A stretch of 64,000 nt of DNA from Elusimicrobia bacterium RIFOXYA2_FULL_39_19 (lineage in GTDB: Bacteria > Elusimicrobiota > Endomicrobiia > CG1-02-37-114 > XYA2-FULL-39-19): contig MGVC01000005.1 in assembly GCA_001800285.1 (NCBI GenBank), positions 18,476-82,475 on the forward strand, written 5' to 3'. This document shows positions 2,848-37,554 of this stretch, piece by piece. Under the pieces are notes generated by a model. That model was given only the letters and a program-made list of their open reading frames with translations, was not told where the DNA came from and did no database searches. A program made the position numbers and the translations under genes. Every line of letters starts with the position of its first letter. Position 1 is the stretch's first letter.

Positions 2848-4026
2848 CTATATTCCCAAATCTGTGGGCGCCCGGCCTATACTGCGCAGCAGGGCAATAA
2901 CTCTGCTGATATTAGCGGTTACTTTTATGTCTGTACCGGCTCTTTGGGGATAGATTTCATAAAGTTTCCGGTATTTTTCGGGTGTCAGGTTTATCATCAG
3001 CGAATTTCCGCCCGCCATTAAACCGCTTTTGGCGCCGTTTTCTTTATCCAGCGTTTCTAATGATGTGGTAACAAGTATTTTTGCTTCCGGGCAGGCAAGG
3101 CGCGCTTTGGCTATGGCGTTTAACGCCAGTTCCAAAGACGGTTTGTTTTCATTTGCCAGCGGTGTCTGCGGATGCGGTATAAAAGGCCCGAAAGAAAACA
3201 TATCCGTGCCAAGCGCTGTAGTAAGTTTGATATCATTTTCTAAATCTTCCCGGGTCTGCCCCGGCAGGCCTGCTAAAAATCCGGTAAAAATCAGGTAACC
3301 CATGTCCCGCAGCTGTTTAATCAGTTCCAGGCGTTTATTAAAATCACTGTCCGGTTTCATTTTTTTATATAACTGCGGATTGCTGGTTTCAAACCTTAAC
3401 AGCACGCCGCGGGCGCCTTCGTCATACAGGCGTTTATAAAAAGATATATCTTTTTCCCCTACGCTTAAAATAAGCAGTATGGGTGTTTTTTCCATTATGG
3501 ATTTTACTACAGAACCCATTATTTCTGCTGTATAGCTGTCATCTTCACCGGACTGCAGGACCAGCGCTTTAAAACCGTGCAGATTTATTGCGTCAGCCGC
3601 CGACTGAATAATTTCATCGGGCTCCATTTGGTATCTTTTAAGCTGTTTATTATCTTTTCTTAAACCGCAGTACAGGCAGTTATGTTTGCAGTAGTTTGAA
3701 AATTCTATTATTCCGTGCACACAGCAGGAATTGCCGGAATATTTATGGCGCACGGCATTGGCCTTTTCATACATGGTTTTTGTTTCCCGGGCAAGGTTTT
3801 TATCTACCTGTGCAAGCTCATGAAACATTTCTTTCCAGGACTCCAGCACCGGCAGGGCCTCGCGCTCTGATATTCTTTGGATTACCAGCCCGCCCTGGGC
3901 ATAAATGTATTCGCCTAAAGCAAGGTTATAAAATTCATTTCTTGCTTTCTTTTGCTCACCGAAGTATTCTACGGTGATTATTTTATCGTTAATTTCTACT
4001 ACTTTTCCCGGAATGGCGTAGCACAT
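2848..4026 (-). CDS. hydE: HypC/HupF-family N-terminal domain fused to a HydE-like (BioB-type) radical SAM maturase
   Basis: N-terminal MCYAIPGKVVEI...GEYIYAQGGLVIQRISEREAL matches HypC signature MC(L/I)AIPxKV...VHVGFA. Residues ~110 onward carry SNYCKHNCLYCGLRKDN (CX3CX2C), which closely resembles the HydE motif NVCRKNCLYCGLRRDN, followed by a BioB-like TIM-barrel-length region. Confidence 0.65.
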   Translation of the reverse strand: MCYAIPGKVVEINDKIITVEYFGEQKKARNEFYNLALGEYIYAQGGLVIQRISEREALPVLESWKEMFHELAQVDKNLARETKTMYEKANAVRHKYSGNSCCVHGIIEFSNYCKHNCLYCGLRKDNKQLKRYQMEPDEIIQSAADAINLHGFKALVLQSGEDDSYTAEIMGSVVKSIMEKTPILLILSVGEKDISFYKRLYDEGARGVLLRFETSNPQLYKKMKPDSDFNKRLELIKQLRDMGYLIFTGFLAGLPGQTREDLENDIKLTTALGTDMFSFGPFIPHPQTPLANENKPSLELALNAIAKARLACPEAKILVTTSLETLDKENGAKSGLMAGGNSLMINLTPEKYRKLYEIYPQRAGTDIKVTANISRVIALLRSIGRAPTDLGI

Positions 4027-4040
4027 TTTGTTTTAGGGGT

Positions 4041-5498
4041 TCAGTAAAACAAATCCCGTTCTCCATTTTTTATCTGCGCCAGTTTATCTGTTACCTGCGC
4101 ACGCATTTTCTTATCTTCAATTTTGTTTAAATAATGGTTTATTAATTTATAGCCGGGTTTGTAGGCGCCGTTTTGTTTTGCAAAATCTTCCAGATATTCA
4201 GCAAAGGTCAGCAGGCCGTTTACCCGGCAGAATTTATGTATTTCACCTGGTTTGGACAGTTCCATGAAATGTTCACCGGTCCTGCCCAGCCGGTAACATG
4301 CCGTGCAGAAACTTGGCAGCAGTTTTTGCGGCAGAATGGATTTTATAACTTCGCTTAAAGAACGTTCATCACTTACTTCAAACTGCACGCCCTTTTTTTT
4401 GTTTCCGTAACCGCCCACTTCCGTAACACTGGCGGCGGACGCCTGGGAAATACCCAGTTTAAAAGCCTGTTTTCTTATCTGCGCGCTTTCCCGGGTGCTG
4501 ATAATCATGCCTGTGTAAGGGACAGCAAGGCGCAGTATGGCAATAAGTTTTAAAAAGTCATTATCTGCTACCGGATATTCCGGCTTATAAGTTACAGACG
4601 GCGCTGGCCGGAATCTGGGTACAGAAATAGTGTGCGGGCCGGTGCCGTGCTTTTTTTCCAGGTAATCTGCGTGCATAATAAGAGCCAGCACCTCAAAGCG
4701 CCAGTCATAAAGCCCGAATAAAACACCGAGGCCTATATCATCAAGGCCTGCTTTGAATGCTTTATCATACGCGGTTAACTGCCTTTGATAATCTGCTTTT
4801 AAGCCTGTATGCAGTTTTTCAAAAGTTTCTTTGTGGTAAGTTTCCTGAAAGAGCTGGTAGGTGCCTATTTTTGATTTTTTAAGTTTCCTGTAATTTTCTT
4901 CAGTGGTGGCGGCAATGTTTACGTTTATCCGGCGTATTGAACCCCTGGGTGTTTTTACAGAGTATATGGTTTCTATGGCTTTGGTTATGTAATCAATGGT
5001 ATTTTTTTCACTGTCTTCGCCAAGCTCCAGCAAGACTCTTTTGTGGCCTGCATTAATAAGGTACGTTACCTGGGCCTTAATTTCTTCAAAAGAAAGTTTT
5101 TTTCTTTTAAGCGCGGTATTTTCTTTATGAAAATTGCAATAATCGCAGTTATTAACGCAGTAATCGGAAATATACAGCGGGGCAAAAAATACAATTCTTT
5201 CGCCGTAAATTTCGTTTTTAATATGGTTTGCCGTTTCAAATAGCTTATTGATAAGTTTTTTGTTTTTTAGGTTTAGCAGTATGCCCGCTTCTTTAAGACT
5301 GAGGCCTTTTTTCTGACGGGCTTTTTTAAGTACTGCTAAAACAGCTTTATCAGCAGGACTTTGTGTCTGCTTTAAAATACCGTTTATAACCTGTTCATTT
5401 ATTATGTTCATAACATATTTTCCTGTTATTTTTCTGATCCTCTCCACTTGCAGATTGTGTCGCAATTTTGGAATGTAGTGGCCAAGCTTGCTTGGCAA
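4041..5498 (-). CDS. hydG: [FeFe]-hydrogenase-type radical SAM maturase HydG (ThiH-like tyrosine lyase)
   Basis: N-terminal CVNNCDYC (CX3CX2C) radical SAM motif. C-terminal CTACYRLGRTGEHFMELSKPGEIHKFC is an exact CX2CX22C second-cluster motif diagnostic of HydG. Size is 485 aa. Confidence 0.8.
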   Translation of the reverse strand: MPSKLGHYIPKLRHNLQVERIRKITGKYVMNIINEQVINGILKQTQSPADKAVLAVLKKARQKKGLSLKEAGILLNLKNKKLINKLFETANHIKNEIYGERIVFFAPLYISDYCVNNCDYCNFHKENTALKRKKLSFEEIKAQVTYLINAGHKRVLLELGEDSEKNTIDYITKAIETIYSVKTPRGSIRRINVNIAATTEENYRKLKKSKIGTYQLFQETYHKETFEKLHTGLKADYQRQLTAYDKAFKAGLDDIGLGVLFGLYDWRFEVLALIMHADYLEKKHGTGPHTISVPRFRPAPSVTYKPEYPVADNDFLKLIAILRLAVPYTGMIISTRESAQIRKQAFKLGISQASAASVTEVGGYGNKKKGVQFEVSDERSLSEVIKSILPQKLLPSFCTACYRLGRTGEHFMELSKPGEIHKFCRVNGLLTFAEYLEDFAKQNGAYKPGYKLINHYLNKIEDKKMRAQVTDKLAQIKNGERDLFY

Positions 5499-6040: not shown

Positions 6041-6403
6041 TTGGCAGGTGTTTCCTGTAGGAACATTCTACAAAATAAGGGCTCTCAATTCAAACAAAAT
6101 GAAATCATGGTAGCCATTGCCGCCAGAACACGATTGATTGACAATAATCTTCACTATTTATATAATTCTTTTATGGCAGGCGAAATAGGAATTTCCAAAT
6201 GGTTGTCGTATTCTTCAGCGCAAAAAATAAAACATTTAAAAACTACCGAAAATAAACGCGCCGTTAAACTGCAGAAATTAACCTACGCACAAGCTGTAAA
6301 ACAAACCCACCAGTTGCTCCGTTATGTAGATTTATTGCCGCATAAAACACGCAGGCATAAACCTGTTGGTATTGGAGTTACCCTTGGCACACATAAAGTT
6401 TGA
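6041..6403 (+). CDS. Hypothetical ORF in hypA upstream gap (doubtful)
   Basis: 120-aa ORF from the track with no recognisable motif and no RBS seen. It may be spurious within a 427-nt intergenic/promoter region. Confidence 0.12.
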   Translation: MAGVSCRNILQNKGSQFKQNEIMVAIAARTRLIDNNLHYLYNSFMAGEIGISKWLSYSSAQKIKHLKTTENKRAVKLQKLTYAQAVKQTHQLLRYVDLLPHKTRRHKPVGIGVTLGTHKV

Positions 6404-7070: not shown

Positions 7071-8186
7071 TTATGGTGCAATATTATTTTCTGGCATGGG
7101 TAAACTTTCCAGCTTTTCTTCAGCCGGCACAACTTCCGGAACTGCTTGTATTTGTGGTTGCGTTTGGGTTTCCGGCGTTTTTTCTTCCTTTGCTTCTGGT
7201 ACAGTTGTCTGTACCAAATCTTTGCTTTTATTATATTTAAAAGGCATAGTCAGCGAAAGCCTGTAAGTATTTCCTAAATATCCGTACGGAGAAAAAGAGC
7301 AGTCCACATTTCCATAAGCACTGTTTATCCCAAACCCTGCAGACAACCCGCTGTCTGCCTGGTTGCGCCCGTTAAAACCAAGCCTTAGTTTTAGAATATG
7401 CAGTAAAGTATATTCAGCACCCATATTGATTATTAGCGGAACATCTTTTGAAAAGGTTGTATCAAAAGCAAAAAGCAGGTTTTGTTCAGGCAGAGTGTAT
7501 GCCGCGCCCAGTTTAAAATTTAACGGCAACTCTTCCTGCGTGCTGTAGAATTTTGCCCTTGTGCCAAGGTTTTGCAATACAGCTCCTGACTGAAAAACCT
7601 CATTGAATTTATACAAACATCCAATATCAATTGCTATTGCCTGTGTTTTTACAAAATCAATTCTTTCGTTTATATATTTCACGCTTAACCCGGCAGACAG
7701 CTTATCATTTAGTTGTTTTCCGCTGCCTAATGTCACCGCCATATCCTGTAAAAGATACTCACTCAGGCCATAGCCATTTCTATTTGAAATAGTAGTCCTT
7801 TGAATTGTGCCCCAGTCAACAATATTTATACTGCCGCCAAAACCAGTATTGGACACAAAGGCAAAATACCGCTGATTTATTTTCTGCAGCCAGAAAGTGT
7901 GCATAAAGTTTACTTCACTTCTTTTTATAACAGCCAAGCCGGCAGGATTATAGTACAAAGCATTAAAATCATCCGCTACGGCTGTAAAGGCCCCGCCCAT
8001 ACCTGCAGGCCTTATGCCTGTATCCAGCCTTAAAAAACCAAAAGGCGTAGTACCCGCACCTTCAGCAGACAAACGGATAGGCGCAGATAAAACACAGAAT
8101 ATACCGGCACAGAAAATCCAGAGCAGAACTCTGCTGTGTTTTCCTTTTAGAAATGAAAGTGTATTTTTTATAATTACCAGTTTCAT
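7071..8186 (-). CDS. PorV/PorQ (LptO)-family outer-membrane beta-barrel, T9SS cargo-shuttle-like
   Basis: Signal peptide, then GAGTTPFGFLRLDTGIRPAGMGGAFTAVADDFNALYYNPAGLA, a family-defining N-terminal motif of PorV/PorQ/UPF0164 barrels. Alternating beta-strand pattern with aromatic C-terminal region. Start ATG overlaps the giant gene's stop (ATGA at 8183-8186). Confidence 0.55.
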   Translation of the reverse strand: MKLVIIKNTLSFLKGKHSRVLLWIFCAGIFCVLSAPIRLSAEGAGTTPFGFLRLDTGIRPAGMGGAFTAVADDFNALYYNPAGLAVIKRSEVNFMHTFWLQKINQRYFAFVSNTGFGGSINIVDWGTIQRTTISNRNGYGLSEYLLQDMAVTLGSGKQLNDKLSAGLSVKYINERIDFVKTQAIAIDIGCLYKFNEVFQSGAVLQNLGTRAKFYSTQEELPLNFKLGAAYTLPEQNLLFAFDTTFSKDVPLIINMGAEYTLLHILKLRLGFNGRNQADSGLSAGFGINSAYGNVDCSFSPYGYLGNTYRLSLTMPFKYNKSKDLVQTTVPEAKEEKTPETQTQPQIQAVPEVVPAEEKLESLPMPENNIAP

Positions 8187-20917: not shown

Positions 20918-21129
20918 TTTTCCTCAAATACCTACCCCGTGCAGTTTTCATCCTGATCTATCCTTTTACAATAGGATATCTGGATATTGCTCATAAAAAA
21001 AAACAATTTGAAAACTATCGCAGGGGTAAAGTGAAAACGATATCCTGTGAACAAAGATGTTTGGAATACAGGGTAAACGTCACACATGCATCCATCCGCG
21101 GGCGATCCCGTGAAAGTCTGCTGCCGTTT

Positions 21130-21166
21130 AAAAAACCGAGTGAAAGCATTGGAAAATGCCACTCGG
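21130..21166 (-). terminator. Intrinsic terminator hairpin plus U-tract in leader of giant gene (possible riboswitch expression platform, or 3' terminator of the hydrogenase operon)
   Basis: Minus-strand CCGAGTG-GCATT-TTCC-AATGC-TTT-CACTCGG followed by TTTTTT (7-bp + 5-bp stems with bulge). Confidence 0.5.
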
Positions 21167-21238
21167 TTGAGTTTACGACACTGTAACCTTACTGCGGTTT
21201 TTGGCGGCCTGGCGGTCATTGGACATTCCTCTTTTTTA

Positions 21239-21330
21239 GGCGTCTGCGCTTCAACTCCCTAGAACCGTTGGAGTCAGGCGTCCTTTAGACCCATAGCTTT
21301 GCGCCCGTCGGTTTCCCGGCGTTTGCTTTT
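21239..21330 (-). promoter_or_regulatory. Candidate c-di-GMP-I (GEMM) riboswitch aptamer upstream of giant T9SS protein gene
   Basis: Minus-strand AAGCAAAC-GCCGG-GAAA-CCGAC-GGGCGCAAAGCT-ATGGGTCTAAAGG... aligns with Vc2 GEMM core GGGCAAAC-CAUUC-GAAA-GAGUGG-GACGCAAAGCC (GCAAAC, 5-bp P-stem with GAAA tetraloop, then CGCAAAGC junction). Tetraloop-receptor-like TATGG/CTAAAGG follows. A -35 TTGACA lies just upstream and a terminator hairpin ~70 nt downstream. Confidence 0.4.
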
Positions 21331-21514
21331 ATCAATTTTTGTCAGTTTTGGTTTTGTAGAGCCAAGGTAATTTGTGCTTTTTGTCACACCCTGATATGTA
21401 TATAGTATGGAAAGATAGTAAAGTCAAGGCTTATTTACATAAACTTTACCGATGATTACTGCGGATTTGGGGTTTTAGGATTTGAGGTGACTAAAATTTC
21501 TGCTATTTGGTGTG

Positions 21515-22177
21515 TTATTTTATGCCGTATTCATCAAAAAGATGAACCTGATGGCGGCATTTGGGGCATGATATTTTGAAGATGTCCGGCCTTGCAATGT
21601 CTTTTATTTCGGTTTTGGGTTTATTGTTTTGGCTTAAATCCATTGATTGCTGGTAGGTTGAAAAAAGCGCGTAATTTCCGTAAGCCATGTGGCCTAATTT
21701 ATTAAACACCCACAGCAACTGGCTTATAGGGGCAATTACAGTGCTGCATTTTTCACACAGGAGCAGTTCTTTTTCTACGCCGGAAAATAGCGTTTTTCTG
21801 TCAAAGGTTGCCAGGTCAAATTCTGTATTGGAAAGTTTTACGCCTTTCTGCGTGGTGCATAGGCGCTCGCACTGCCCGCAGAATACACAAAGGTCATAAT
21901 GCCAGATTATACTGCGGTTAAAAACACCATCATTATCAGCAGATTCTTTTACTTCTATGGCCTGTGCCGGGCAGACTTCTGCGCAGGCACCGCAGGCAAT
22001 ACATTCATCCTGATTAGGGATAGGTTTACCGCGGAATCTTTTTTCCGGGACGTGCGGTTCATAAGGGAACCTTGAAGTATAGGGCCCTTTGATTAACGCT
22101 TTTATTGCTTCGCCAAGTTCTCTAAGTTTTGGATATCTCATATAAGTATTAACGCTGAACGCTAAATTGAAAATCAA
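21515..22177 (-). CDS. NuoI/HycF/MbhN-like 2x[4Fe-4S] ferredoxin subunit of membrane-bound hydrogenase
   Basis: CIACGACAEVCP and CVFCGQCERLC 4Fe-4S motifs; 220 aa; last gene of the operon. Confidence 0.75.
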   Translation of the reverse strand: MIFNLAFSVNTYMRYPKLRELGEAIKALIKGPYTSRFPYEPHVPEKRFRGKPIPNQDECIACGACAEVCPAQAIEVKESADNDGVFNRSIIWHYDLCVFCGQCERLCTTQKGVKLSNTEFDLATFDRKTLFSGVEKELLLCEKCSTVIAPISQLLWVFNKLGHMAYGNYALFSTYQQSMDLSQNNKPKTEIKDIARPDIFKISCPKCRHQVHLFDEYGIK

Positions 22178-33623: not shown

Positions 33624-34343
33624 TTAGGCCTCGGTTTTTTCTATTTCTTTGGCAAGAATTACAGCTTCAGCTACGGCACGAAGGGTTTTACGGGCATCCA
33701 TACTTTTTTTCTGCAGCAGCCTGTAGGCATCTTCTTCAGAATGACCATACTGTTTCATAATGATACCTTTGGCTTTTTCTACAAGCTTGCGGGTTTCAAG
33801 CTCTTCTTTTAAAATATTTGATGTGACCAGCAGGTTCGCATTTTCTATAACTACGGCCGCCTGGTTTGCAACAGTTGTTAAGACAGCTATTTCTGAATCA
33901 GTAAACTTATGAAAAAATGAAGTATAACAATTTAAAGCTCCAATGGGTTTACCTTTTACGTCCAGCGGCACGCACAGCAAGGACTTTAAACCCAGTTTTT
34001 TTGCCATATCCTTAAATTTAAACTCCGGTTCATTTAAAACATCTAAAACCTGAATAGGTTTATTTTCCTTGAGTACTTTACCTGCAATGCCTTCCCCTAT
34101 TTTTAAAGAACCCTTTTTTATATATTCCTCACTCATGCTTTGGGTAGCTTTAATGTCCAGGGCTCCCTGCTTTACATCAAATAACATTATTGAACAGATC
34201 TCTGATTTCATTACCTGTGCGGTTACGGTGACAATAAGCTTTAAAATATCTTCCAAGTAAAGGTCTGATGTGATGGCTTTGCTGATTTTTGAGACAGCGT
34301 TAATGAAATCATTGTGGTCAGTCTTGTTTCTTGTTTTTTTCAT
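33624..34343 (-). CDS. GAF-domain plus ANTAR-domain RNA-binding antiterminator regulator
   Basis: N-terminal GAF-like region. C-terminal AKGIIMKQYGHSEEDAYRLLQKKSMDARKTLRAVAEAV matches ANTAR consensus (AKGiLM...EeAy..Lr..Sm..n.kL..vAe.v). Confidence 0.7.
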   Translation of the reverse strand: MKKTRNKTDHNDFINAVSKISKAITSDLYLEDILKLIVTVTAQVMKSEICSIMLFDVKQGALDIKATQSMSEEYIKKGSLKIGEGIAGKVLKENKPIQVLDVLNEPEFKFKDMAKKLGLKSLLCVPLDVKGKPIGALNCYTSFFHKFTDSEIAVLTTVANQAAVVIENANLLVTSNILKEELETRKLVEKAKGIIMKQYGHSEEDAYRLLQKKSMDARKTLRAVAEAVILAKEIEKTEA

Positions 34344-36441: not shown

Positions 36442-37554
36442 TCAGATGGTTTTTACCCACCATCTTCTGGCTTTCAGTTCCAGTGCGAGTTTTTTATCTT
36501 CTAATTTCAATTTTGTTTCATCTACAGCTTCCGTTATATAGATAACGCTGTTTTTGCTTAAATCCACCAGCTTTTCTGTTGGCACTCTTTTATTTTCACT
36601 GTCAATTACTATTTTAAGTTTGGGCCTTGTGGGTAGTCCGGGGTTTGAGCCTACAACCCGGGCTATTTCGTCAGTATTTACCCGGACATAACTGCCTATA
36701 GGATAAAGTGAAACCTTTTCTATGAATAACTTTACCAGATTCATATCAAAATTCATGTCAGCCATATCAATCATTTTCTTAAGCGCGTCATGTGACAGTA
36801 TGCTTTCTCTCCAGGACCGCGGATGGGTAAATGCTTCAAACACGTCAGCTACGCTGATAATTTTTGACATTATGTCTATTTCTTCTCCGGAAAGACCTTT
36901 TGGATAACCGGCGCCGTCTCTGCGTTCGTGTACCTGGGATATAATTACGGAAACTGCGGTTTTGGTTTGCGGAGACATTATTACATTTTCCAGCAATTGT
37001 TTATTATACATAGTGTGTTTTTTGATTTCGCTGAATTCTGAACCATTTACCTTGCCTTGTTTTGCCGCAAGTTCTACAACTTTAAGCATTCCGATGTCAT
37101 GCAGGAATGCTGAAATGGTAAGTTTTTCCAGCTGTTCTGAAGAATAGCCGTAGGCAAAACCAAGGGCTGTAGAAAGAATAGCGGTATTAACACTGTGGCT
37201 ATGCAGATATAAGTCCGGCGTAGTATATCTGCACATGGCAATCAGTTCATCATTGTTGGCTACTATTAAAGCTATTATTTTTCTTGCTACATTTAAAAGC
37301 GGGTTTATGTCTACTTTGTTTTTTTCAATATTCAGAAGGAACTTTCTTTGCGTATCAATACCTTCCGTATAGACTTTTTCCGCTGAATCTACACGGTGTA
37401 TCTCCTGAACAAACTGTACCTTGTCCAGTTGGGGCTCTTCGGTTTTTTCTTCAACAATTTCTTCGGGTTCTAATTCGGATACTTCTTGAGGGGTTAAATC
37501 TTCAGTGGATTTATTTTGGACGGATTTTTTCTTAAGTATGTCTGAAAGTCGCAT
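36442..37554 (-). CDS. HD-GYP domain c-di-GMP phosphodiesterase-like protein
   Basis: HSVNTAILSTALG...LHDIGM...HERRDGAGYPKGL, the HD and GYP signatures. Confidence 0.75.
   Translation of the reverse strand: MRLSDILKKKSVQNKSTEDLTPQEVSELEPEEIVEEKTEEPQLDKVQFVQEIHRVDSAEKVYTEGIDTQRKFLLNIEKNKVDINPLLNVARKIIALIVANNDELIAMCRYTTPDLYLHSHSVNTAILSTALGFAYGYSSEQLEKLTISAFLHDIGMLKVVELAAKQGKVNGSEFSEIKKHTMYNKQLLENVIMSPQTKTAVSVIISQVHERRDGAGYPKGLSGEEIDIMSKIISVADVFEAFTHPRSWRESILSHDALKKMIDMADMNFDMNLVKLFIEKVSLYPIGSYVRVNTDEIARVVGSNPGLPTRPKLKIVIDSENKRVPTEKLVDLSKNSVIYITEAVDETKLKLEDKKLALELKARRWWVKTI

Follow-up and report, generated by a model that had tools for sequence, protein, structure and literature searches.

Leader and locus

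The window, a 64-kb stretch of the groundwater metagenome-assembled genome (MAG) 'Elusimicrobia bacterium RIFOXYA2_FULL_39_19', carries on its minus strand a GEMM-I riboswitch aptamer and an intrinsic terminator in the leader of a giant gene for a secreted protein of 4,244 amino acids (aa). Upstream, an Mrp/Mbh-type group-4 [NiFe] hydrogenase operon ends at 21515, and the intergenic region between the Fer4 stop codon at that position and the giant-gene ATG (20917) measures ~600 nucleotides (nt). Aptamer, terminator and giant open reading frame (ORF) follow one another in a single orientation, with no other gene before the giant ORF, and the aptamer lies 420 nt 5′ of the ATG on the same strand. 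The 600-nt intergenic leader is base-for-base identical across seven independent metagenome assemblies, so the sequence is reliable and an assembly artefact is excluded. The features, in order of transcription, are as follows.

21427-21422 and 21404-21399, minus strand: candidate sigma-70-like promoter (TTGACT, 17-nt spacer, TATATA), read from the sequence
21337-21200, minus strand: GEMM-I aptamer, A20 subtype, 138 nt (RF01051)
21199-21167, minus strand: linker, 33 nt, with two CAGU repeats (co-transcriptional folds, duplex energies)
21166-21130, minus strand: intrinsic terminator, 14-bp bulged hairpin followed by U6 (folds)
21129-20918, minus strand: structured downstream leader, 212 nt (minimum free energy (MFE) fold)
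20917, minus strand: AUG start codon
20917-8183, minus strand: giant gene, 4,244 codons, predicted secreted protein (ORF)
8186-7071, minus strand: gene 2, PorV/PorQ-family outer-membrane beta-barrel (NF033709)

A 95-codon ORF within the leader (20932-21219) was rejected: its composition is implausible, it spans the terminator and it was left uncalled by gene callers in every assembly.

A full-length GEMM-I aptamer

Scanning the full window with cmscan at gathering thresholds against 4,227 Rfam families returned a single match, to RF01051 (c-di-GMP-I; c-di-GMP, cyclic dimeric guanosine monophosphate), at 21337-21200 on the minus strand, scoring 61.3 bits against a gathering threshold of 35 (E = 1.5e-9) and covering model positions 1-87 of 87. 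With the 711-nt leader scanned alone, the same match reached E = 1.6e-11 and no second Rfam element was better than E = 1. An earlier note on this DNA, made from the letters alone, had read a GEMM riboswitch with a terminator in the giant-gene leader and named a covariance-model search as the check; the full-length match bears out both the family and the placement. By this match, the element is confirmed as a true full-length GEMM-I riboswitch aptamer with a terminator in the giant-gene leader. The motifs quoted in the earlier note are all present, namely GCAAAC (21326-21321), the GAAA loop (21315-21312), GGGCGCAAAGC (21305-21295) and the CUAAAG receptor (21288-21283), but that reading overlooked the A at 21327, in the place of G20 of the Vc2 aptamer. 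The aptamer is built of the following parts.

21335-21333, minus strand: P1 5′ strand UUG, pairing with CAA; the G-C pair abuts the junction
21332-21327, minus strand: J1/2, AUAAAA; its last A is the Vc2 G20 equivalent
21327, minus strand: A at the Vc2 G20 position (Gs1761 A14, Bc2 A11), model position 11 in the cmscan alignment
21326-21301, minus strand: P2, GC-AAA-CGCCGG-GAAA-CCGACG-GGC-GC, with one C.A mismatch (cmscan alignment)
21300-21299, minus strand: equivalents of A47 and A48, with A47 at 21300 (cmscan alignment)
21298-21206, minus strand: P3, with the CUAAAG receptor, the distal stem GGAC/GUCC and an insertion at 21278-21225
21205 and 21204, minus strand: J1/3, G and C; C 21204 is the equivalent of Vc2 C92 and Gs1761 C75
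21203-21201, minus strand: P1 3′ strand CAA, pairing with UUG

Only two pairs of the model alignment are non-canonical: a C.A within P2 and an A.C at the outer end of P3. The base of P2 is canonical (G21-C46 and C22-G45, 21326-25 with 21302-01), followed by AAA and capped by the GAAA tetraloop, and the P3 strands (UGGGUC-UAAA-GGAC...GUCC-AAU-GAC-CG-CCAGGCC) hold the tetraloop receptor at the correct distance. Two junction residues contact the ligand in characterized aptamers: A47 of Vc2 intercalates between the ligand bases (PMC5888326), and the C92/C75 position forms a Watson-Crick pair with the beta guanine (PMC6274999, PMC6140456). P1 was placed using the map of Gs1761, in which P1 is G1-G8/C76-G84 and J1/2 has 6 nt (PMC6274999), together with a conserved G found 6 nt before 'GC' in 120 listed aptamers that share the A at position 20 (A20 aptamers). 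Extended P1 pairings seen in MFE folds (ACUG/CAGU, UGACA/UGUCG and AACC/GGUU) are weak and lack support, and were rejected. Also rejected was a 'plus-strand terminator' at 21306-21321, the only call of the consensus scanner in this region, which is an artefact consisting of the reverse complement of the P2 hairpin plus a T-rich stretch.

The distal part of P3 is enlarged by a 54-nt insertion (21278-21225), rendered as '[54]' in the cmscan alignment. The resulting distal segment of 70 nt is an outlier: in 106 confidently parsed A20 aptamers among those listed, the median is 19 nt and most fall within 12-34 nt, and only four Desulfobacteraceae aptamers (~150-165 nt) and a few doubtful parses exceed the window. 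A Y-shaped fold predicted for the insertion is no better than that of shuffled sequences (z -0.13). Vc1 (gbpA) of Vibrio cholerae, 107-110 nt long overall, and the four Desulfobacteraceae aptamers, enlarged at the same place, are precedents for a long distal P3; the inserted sequences are unrelated. The four Desulfobacteraceae aptamers, from MAGs, are themselves A20-type GEMM-I elements in which the closing P3 strand is well paired and P1 is clear (CAAGCU...AGCUUG).

Pocket subtype and probable ligand

Position 20 reads the alpha base of the ligand (PMC6140456, PMC6456294, PMC4933901): it is G in c-di-GMP-selective aptamers, with a Hoogsteen contact to the alpha guanine, and A in the Geobacter GEMM-Ib aptamers that sense cyclic GMP-AMP (cGAMP). 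The window has A (21327) where c-di-GMP selectivity goes with G. We aligned the pocket positions of the window with those of Vc2, Cd1, Bc2, Clostridium beijerinckii, pilM and Geobacter aptamers, drawing on sequences that included two paper supplements. The Geobacter cGAMP class combines A20 with C21U22...G45G46 and a GCGA loop, without a CUAA receptor. A20 goes together with G21C22...G45C46 and a GAAA loop in the window, in Bc2 and in the A20 aptamers of C. beijerinckii; the last-named and the window also share the CUAA receptor. Among GEMM-Ib features the window has A20 and lacks both C21-G46 and U22.G45. As judged from these aligned positions, it belongs to an 'A20, otherwise canonical' subtype of GEMM-I.

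RF01051 includes A20 variants; these bind c-di-GMP by way of a protonated adenine, and cGAMP as well (PMC6140456). The Vc2 G20A mutant has affinities of 53 nM for c-di-GMP and 120 nM for cGAMP (PMC6140456), and the natural A20 aptamer Cbe 1-2 is described as bispecific, with dissociation constants of 30 nM and 463 nM, respectively, in the account that PMC6140456 gives citing Nelson et al. 2015. Bc2, whose 'A11' reads the alpha guanine, responds to c-di-GMP in vitro and in vivo; cGAMP was not tried on it (PMC4933901). Because the tested natural aptamers with the same pocket (Bc2 and Cbe 1-2) respond to c-di-GMP, this is the most likely physiological ligand, and 3′,3′-cGAMP would, by analogy, probably also bind, at tens of nM to sub-uM. 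Control of the giant gene by c-di-GMP, as first proposed for this locus, we consider likely: the family assignment on which the proposal relied stands, but certainty about a sole ligand falls with A20, since tested A20 aptamers bind both dinucleotides (PMC6140456).

Terminator and direction of switching

The terminator consists of a 5′ arm (21166-21155), a UUCC loop (21154-21151), a 3′ arm with a 3-nt bulge (21150-21136) and U6 (21135-21130). Its 14-bp hairpin has a predicted free energy of -16.5 kcal/mol and a pair probability of 0.999 in the full-length ensemble, in agreement with the strong intrinsic terminator seen earlier; a consensus terminator scanner missed it because of the bulge. It starts 38 nt past C92, 34 nt past the aptamer 3′ end and 117 nt past CTAAAG. 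The last distance had been put at about 70 nt, an underestimate that arose because the P3 insertion had been overlooked.

The aptamer ends before the terminator begins, and both form in all co-transcriptional and full-length folds. A terminator could be detected in 63 of the listed A20 riboswitches, and the distance from C92 to its start follows a bimodal distribution. The start lies at or before C92 in 25 of them, the overlapping ON-switch design of Bc2 and pilM, and at +7 to +54 in ~31, a range that takes in the window (+38) and Cd1 (~+47). From its layout the platform architecture is Cd1-like.

Candidate antiterminators did not pass controls. A 14-bp pairing of the aptamer 3′ half with the terminator 5′ arm and loop (-12.8 kcal/mol) lies 6.3 kcal/mol above the MFE and is equalled by 9.4% of shuffles and 11.8% of genomic windows. 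A hairpin between linker and terminator (-6.7 kcal/mol against -16.5 for the terminator) is no better than chance, and no weak pairing of the linker with the 5′ flank or the terminator 5′ arm was statistically supported. Dual hexaloop hairpins of the ANTAR type do not fit the linker, whose loops are 7 and 4 nt by inspection. Applied class-wide to 32 'separated' A20 riboswitches, the antiterminator test gave a median z of -0.3 with 6 of 32 significant, and the positive control, Cd1, failed too. The window also encodes, ~12 kb away from the riboswitch (33624-34343, minus strand), a GAF-ANTAR protein, a regulator of antitermination that binds RNA; its gene adjoins a radical-SAM/SPASM gene.

Comparison with known riboswitches

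Bc2, which precedes the collagen adhesion gene cap in Bacillus thuringiensis / B. cereus, shares with the window the RF01051 family, A11/A20, G21-C46/C22-G45, the GAAA loop, an intrinsic terminator in the 5′ untranslated region and a large surface protein as the product of the regulated gene (PMC4933901). It differs in that its terminator directly follows the aptamer (product ~121 nt) and it is an ON switch, whereas in the window the terminator starts 38 nt past C92 and is followed by 210 structured nt of leader. Further differences are ACA and GCC in Bc2 at the positions of AAA and GGC in the window, its P3 of normal length and its host in Bacillota rather than Elusimicrobiota.

Cd1, the OFF switch of the Clostridioides difficile flagellar operon, resembles the window in that aptamer and terminator are separate and coexist, with a spacer of ~47 nt against 38 nt (PMC9262584). 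In the published account Cd1 lacks P1, its aptamer can form alongside the terminator, and an antiterminator competes (PMC9262584). A very weak or absent P1, GCCAAAAA directly after P3 and a long leader past the terminator are common to both; Cd1 differs in having G at position 20 and a P3 of ordinary length. In Cd1 the antiterminator is evident, with GCCAAAAAG paired to CUUUUUGGC, a stretch of the terminator loop and 3′ arm, whereas no equivalent was demonstrated in the window.

A C. beijerinckii aptamer (CP000721.1, 4634346-4634259) has a core 81% identical to that of the window, a figure for this locus, which may or may not be 'Cbe 1-2'. The two share the UUG...CAA P1, the pocket subtype, the pattern UUG-AUAAxA-GC...GCCAAA, the GAAA loop and the receptor strand GCUAUGGGUCUAAAG; the C. 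beijerinckii A20 aptamers differ in their ACA and GCC joiners and in having no P3 insertion. The Geobacter GEMM-Ib aptamers (Gs1761/pgcA, pilM and Gmet_0970) match the window in A20, A47, C92, the three-helix fold and RF01051 membership, many also in the GGC joiner, and depart from it in C21-G46, U22.G45, the GCGA loop, the missing CUAA receptor and a terminator that overlaps the aptamer (ON).

Downstream genes and proposed mechanism

The giant protein has a signal-peptide-like N-terminus and is rich in Thr, Ser, Val and Gly. No Pfam family matches it at 1e-3, no Protein Data Bank (PDB) sequence does, and self-BLAST shows no internal repeats. In a set of 5.8 billion clustered proteins its N-terminal 700 aa have 13 homologues, of which the closest is 46% identical, and by these searches the protein is essentially an orphan. 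The C-terminal 125 aa resemble the C-terminal domain (CTD) of PorZ (5e-11), FlgD_ig (1e-4; 22.5 bits against a cutoff of 27), CHU_C (5e-4; 20.4 against 27) and Por_Secre_tail (0.02; 15 against 23-27), all below curated cutoffs. Gene 2, which overlaps the giant-gene stop codon by 4 nt, matches NCBIfam NF033709 with 163 bits against a cutoff of 90 and Pfam UPF0164 at 1.4e-10. The giant protein had earlier been called a cargo of the type IX secretion system (T9SS) and an adhesin. The PorV/PorQ neighbour above its cutoff and the T9SS-CTD-like C-terminus speak for the first label, but we took a C-terminal sorting domain above a curated threshold (TIGR04183 / PF18962 or type B) as the mark of a cargo, the CTD here is sub-threshold, and neither Pfam nor PDB has a match to the remainder of the protein. 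No PorK/L/M/N, SprA or PorU is encoded within the window, and T9SS in Elusimicrobia was undocumented in the literature searched. 'Giant T9SS-like secreted protein' seems a fair description given these matches; 'adhesin' is a guess.

Second-messenger genes are represented in the window by a phosphodiesterase gene of the HD-GYP type, which is context and not part of the element.

36442-37554, minus strand: HD-GYP-type phosphodiesterase gene (Pfam HD_5, 5e-25)

Both of its motifs are intact (HD at residue 152, GYP at residue 216), so the HD-GYP gene that had been noticed ~15 kb away is real. A search of the ORFs of the window turned up no GGDEF, EAL, PilZ or CD-NTase domain.

Taken together, we think it probable that the element is a functional GEMM-I riboswitch, A20 but otherwise canonical, that leads a two-gene operon of the giant secreted protein and its PorV/PorQ-like partner. 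In the mechanism that we propose, a cyclic dinucleotide would bind at the three-helix junction and, as the 33-nt linker is being transcribed, lock P1 (a short UUG/CAA helix) and the docking of P2 and P3; the ligand state would then set the fraction of polymerases that stop at U6 (21135-21130) as against those that read into the giant gene. Our tentative preference is for an OFF switch, in which ligand promotes termination; we lean to it because the terminator lies clear of the aptamer, an architecture known from the OFF switch Cd1. Expression of the 4,244-aa protein and its PorV-like partner would probably be tied to cyclic-dinucleotide levels, which offers a way to test how an otherwise unannotatable giant gene of an uncultured phylum is regulated.

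Alternative readings

That the resemblance to GEMM-I arose by chance and has no function is a negligible prospect: E = 1.5e-9 for the whole window effectively refutes it, the tertiary-contact motifs are complete and correctly spaced, and position and orientation are those of a riboswitch. What can be said for it, the lack of covariation at the locus and of ligand data, belongs to several points that weigh against a functional, ligand-controlled element. All seven available leader copies are identical, so locus-specific covariation is absent, and the loci of the nearest giant-protein homologues (46%, 34% and 29% identity) have no Rfam match nearby. P1 has just three contiguous pairs; short P1 helices are usual for the subclass, mostly 0-3 bp in the 106 parsed aptamers. 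Model position 34 is G, giving a GGC joiner, where A (GAC) is near-invariant elsewhere; GGC occurs in five of the 120 listed canonical A20 aptamers. No antiterminator passed controls, and thermodynamically the terminator always forms. No ORF in the window encodes a GGDEF, EAL or CD-NTase domain. Finally, the promoter is a weak consensus match, and read-through from the hydrogenase operon into the leader is possible. The TTGACT/TATATA candidate, weak and inferred, would place the transcription start near 21392, ~55 nt upstream of the aptamer; the consensus scanner skipped it because its -10 hexamer ends in A. The -35 TTGACA proposed earlier at ~21345 in fact reads CTGACA (21345-21340), and a promoter there was rejected because transcription would start within the aptamer. 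The hydrogenase operon lacks its own terminator ahead of the riboswitch, so its transcripts may run on into the riboswitch. The hairpin and U6 could serve mainly as the hydrogenase-operon terminator, with the aptamer in its 3′ region as a relic or a determinant of upstream-transcript stability and the giant-gene promoter further downstream. In keeping with this, the consensus scan found no other terminator-like site on the minus strand, either from 21515 to 21130 or onward to the giant-gene ATG, and there is a precedent in Vc2, a 3′-located GEMM-I element that reportedly controls the stability of an upstream small RNA. We nevertheless regard it as very unlikely. An aptamer intact at every conserved position (61.3 bits) argues against a relic, the consensus scan found no promoter-like site on the minus strand from 21130 to the ATG, and a 600-nt intergenic region with aptamer, terminator and gene in one orientation is the standard riboswitch layout; the pairing of aptamer and terminator in this arrangement recurs in 63 of 106 listed relatives.

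If the riboswitch is functional, its ligand and its sign can each be read differently. It could be selective for 3′,3′-cGAMP, a GEMM-Ib in function whose A20 reads the adenine of cGAMP and places the giant gene under cGAMP control. HD-GYP enzymes can degrade cGAMP, the Vibrio V-cGAP phosphodiesterases being HD-GYP proteins, and for this reason the HD-GYP gene does not discriminate between c-di-GMP and cGAMP. An A at the G20 position is the defining substitution of cGAMP riboswitches, and A20G alone flips a Geobacter aptamer to c-di-GMP (PMC6456294, PMC6140456); the GGC joiner, too, is common in Geobacter GEMM-Ib sequences. Against these stand the absence of C21-G46, U22.G45 and the GCGA loop, the presence of a CUAA receptor that the Geobacter class lacks, and the preference for or response to c-di-GMP of aptamers with this pocket type (Bc2, Cbe 1-2 and Vc2 G20A). 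Nor was a DncV-like gene or a Hypr GGDEF seen within the 64 kb. A cGAMP-selective switch is accordingly improbable. As for sign, the same riboswitch and ligand could form an ON switch like Bc2 before cap, with termination as the default and ligand-induced read-through turning on the giant surface protein. The terminator is predicted in essentially all molecules unaided, which fits a default-off design, and the usual biological logic agrees, as high c-di-GMP commonly induces adhesion. With CAGU present twice, the pairing register could shift and leave the linker free to base-pair with the 5′ arm of the terminator. The closest functional precedent is Bc2, an A20 GEMM-I that precedes an adhesin gene and works as an ON switch (PMC4933901). 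In Bc2, pilM and the other overlapping designs, however, the terminator 5′ arm overlaps the aptamer 3′ end; with the terminator 38 nt downstream, a bound aptamer cannot directly sequester that arm, and the sole linker-terminator pairing is weak and at chance level. ON control is thus possible but rather unlikely, and the OFF switch remains our tentative choice.

Structured segment before the start codon

The segment between terminator and start codon (20918-21129) is strongly structured (MFE -67.3, z -3.84, with none of 200 shuffles as good) and has no Rfam match. Its MFE fold pairs the Shine-Dalgarno GAG and the AUGAUG start, whose unpaired probability is mostly below 0.1, and it may add a second, independent layer of control at translation. 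It contains four AGGA motifs (21046, 20964, 20954 and 20924), four or more being present in just 0.12% of the 135-nt windows of this strand; it is perhaps a CsrA-type multi-GGA leader.

Distribution of the A20 subtype

Scanning species-representative genomes with an invariant-core pattern that left the stems free, we found at least 119 loci of the A20-canonical subtype. Hosts include Clostridia, Bacilli, Syntrophomonadaceae, Chloroflexota, Desulfobacteraceae, Colwellia and Synergistales, so that Bacillota, Chloroflexota, Desulfobacterota, Gammaproteobacteria and Synergistota are represented and the subtype is widespread, not peculiar to the window's lineage. Automatic 'c-di-GMP-I' labels thus conceal how large the A20 subclass is (at least 119 loci in at least five phyla); ligand preference has been measured for only two or three of its members. 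Elusimicrobia are absent from the A20 matches listed and from a 2016 Rfam-derived table, and no paper combining Elusimicrobia with a c-di-GMP riboswitch was found in the literature searched. As far as we found, the element is a known riboswitch class in a phylum where none has been discussed, and to riboswitch specialists it will be expected rather than surprising. Secondary interest lies in the A20 pocket variant, the unusually long P3 and the Cd1-like separated platform.

It is a distant prospect that the A20 aptamer acts in this Elusimicrobia lineage as a physiological 3′,3′-cGAMP sensor or as a deliberately dual c-di-GMP/cGAMP sensor. If it did, cGAMP-riboswitch signalling would extend beyond the Geobacter type to a multi-phylum A20-canonical subclass, and cGAMP signalling would be tied to export of an orphan 4,244-aa surface protein via a T9SS-like PorV partner.

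A metagenome pattern scan for orthologous leaders gave zero matches. Several metagenome assemblies break within the leader, where two of them end, or within the giant gene; such frequent fragmentation of the locus in public data may hide orthologous riboswitches. The source contig terminates shortly past the window edge. Tandem A20-type aptamers ~110 nt apart occur in Syntrophomonadaceae and Anaerolineales genomes (L020 433-589, L085 ~7180-7290 and L117 ~6041-6150).

Further along the minus strand, a 392-aa protein (2848-4026) has an N-terminal HupF/HypC domain (residues 1-63) fused to radical-SAM and BATS domains, an architecture that appears unusual for a hydrogenase-maturation gene. Its neighbours are another radical-SAM/BATS protein (4041-5498) and HypA, the latter on the extended contig.

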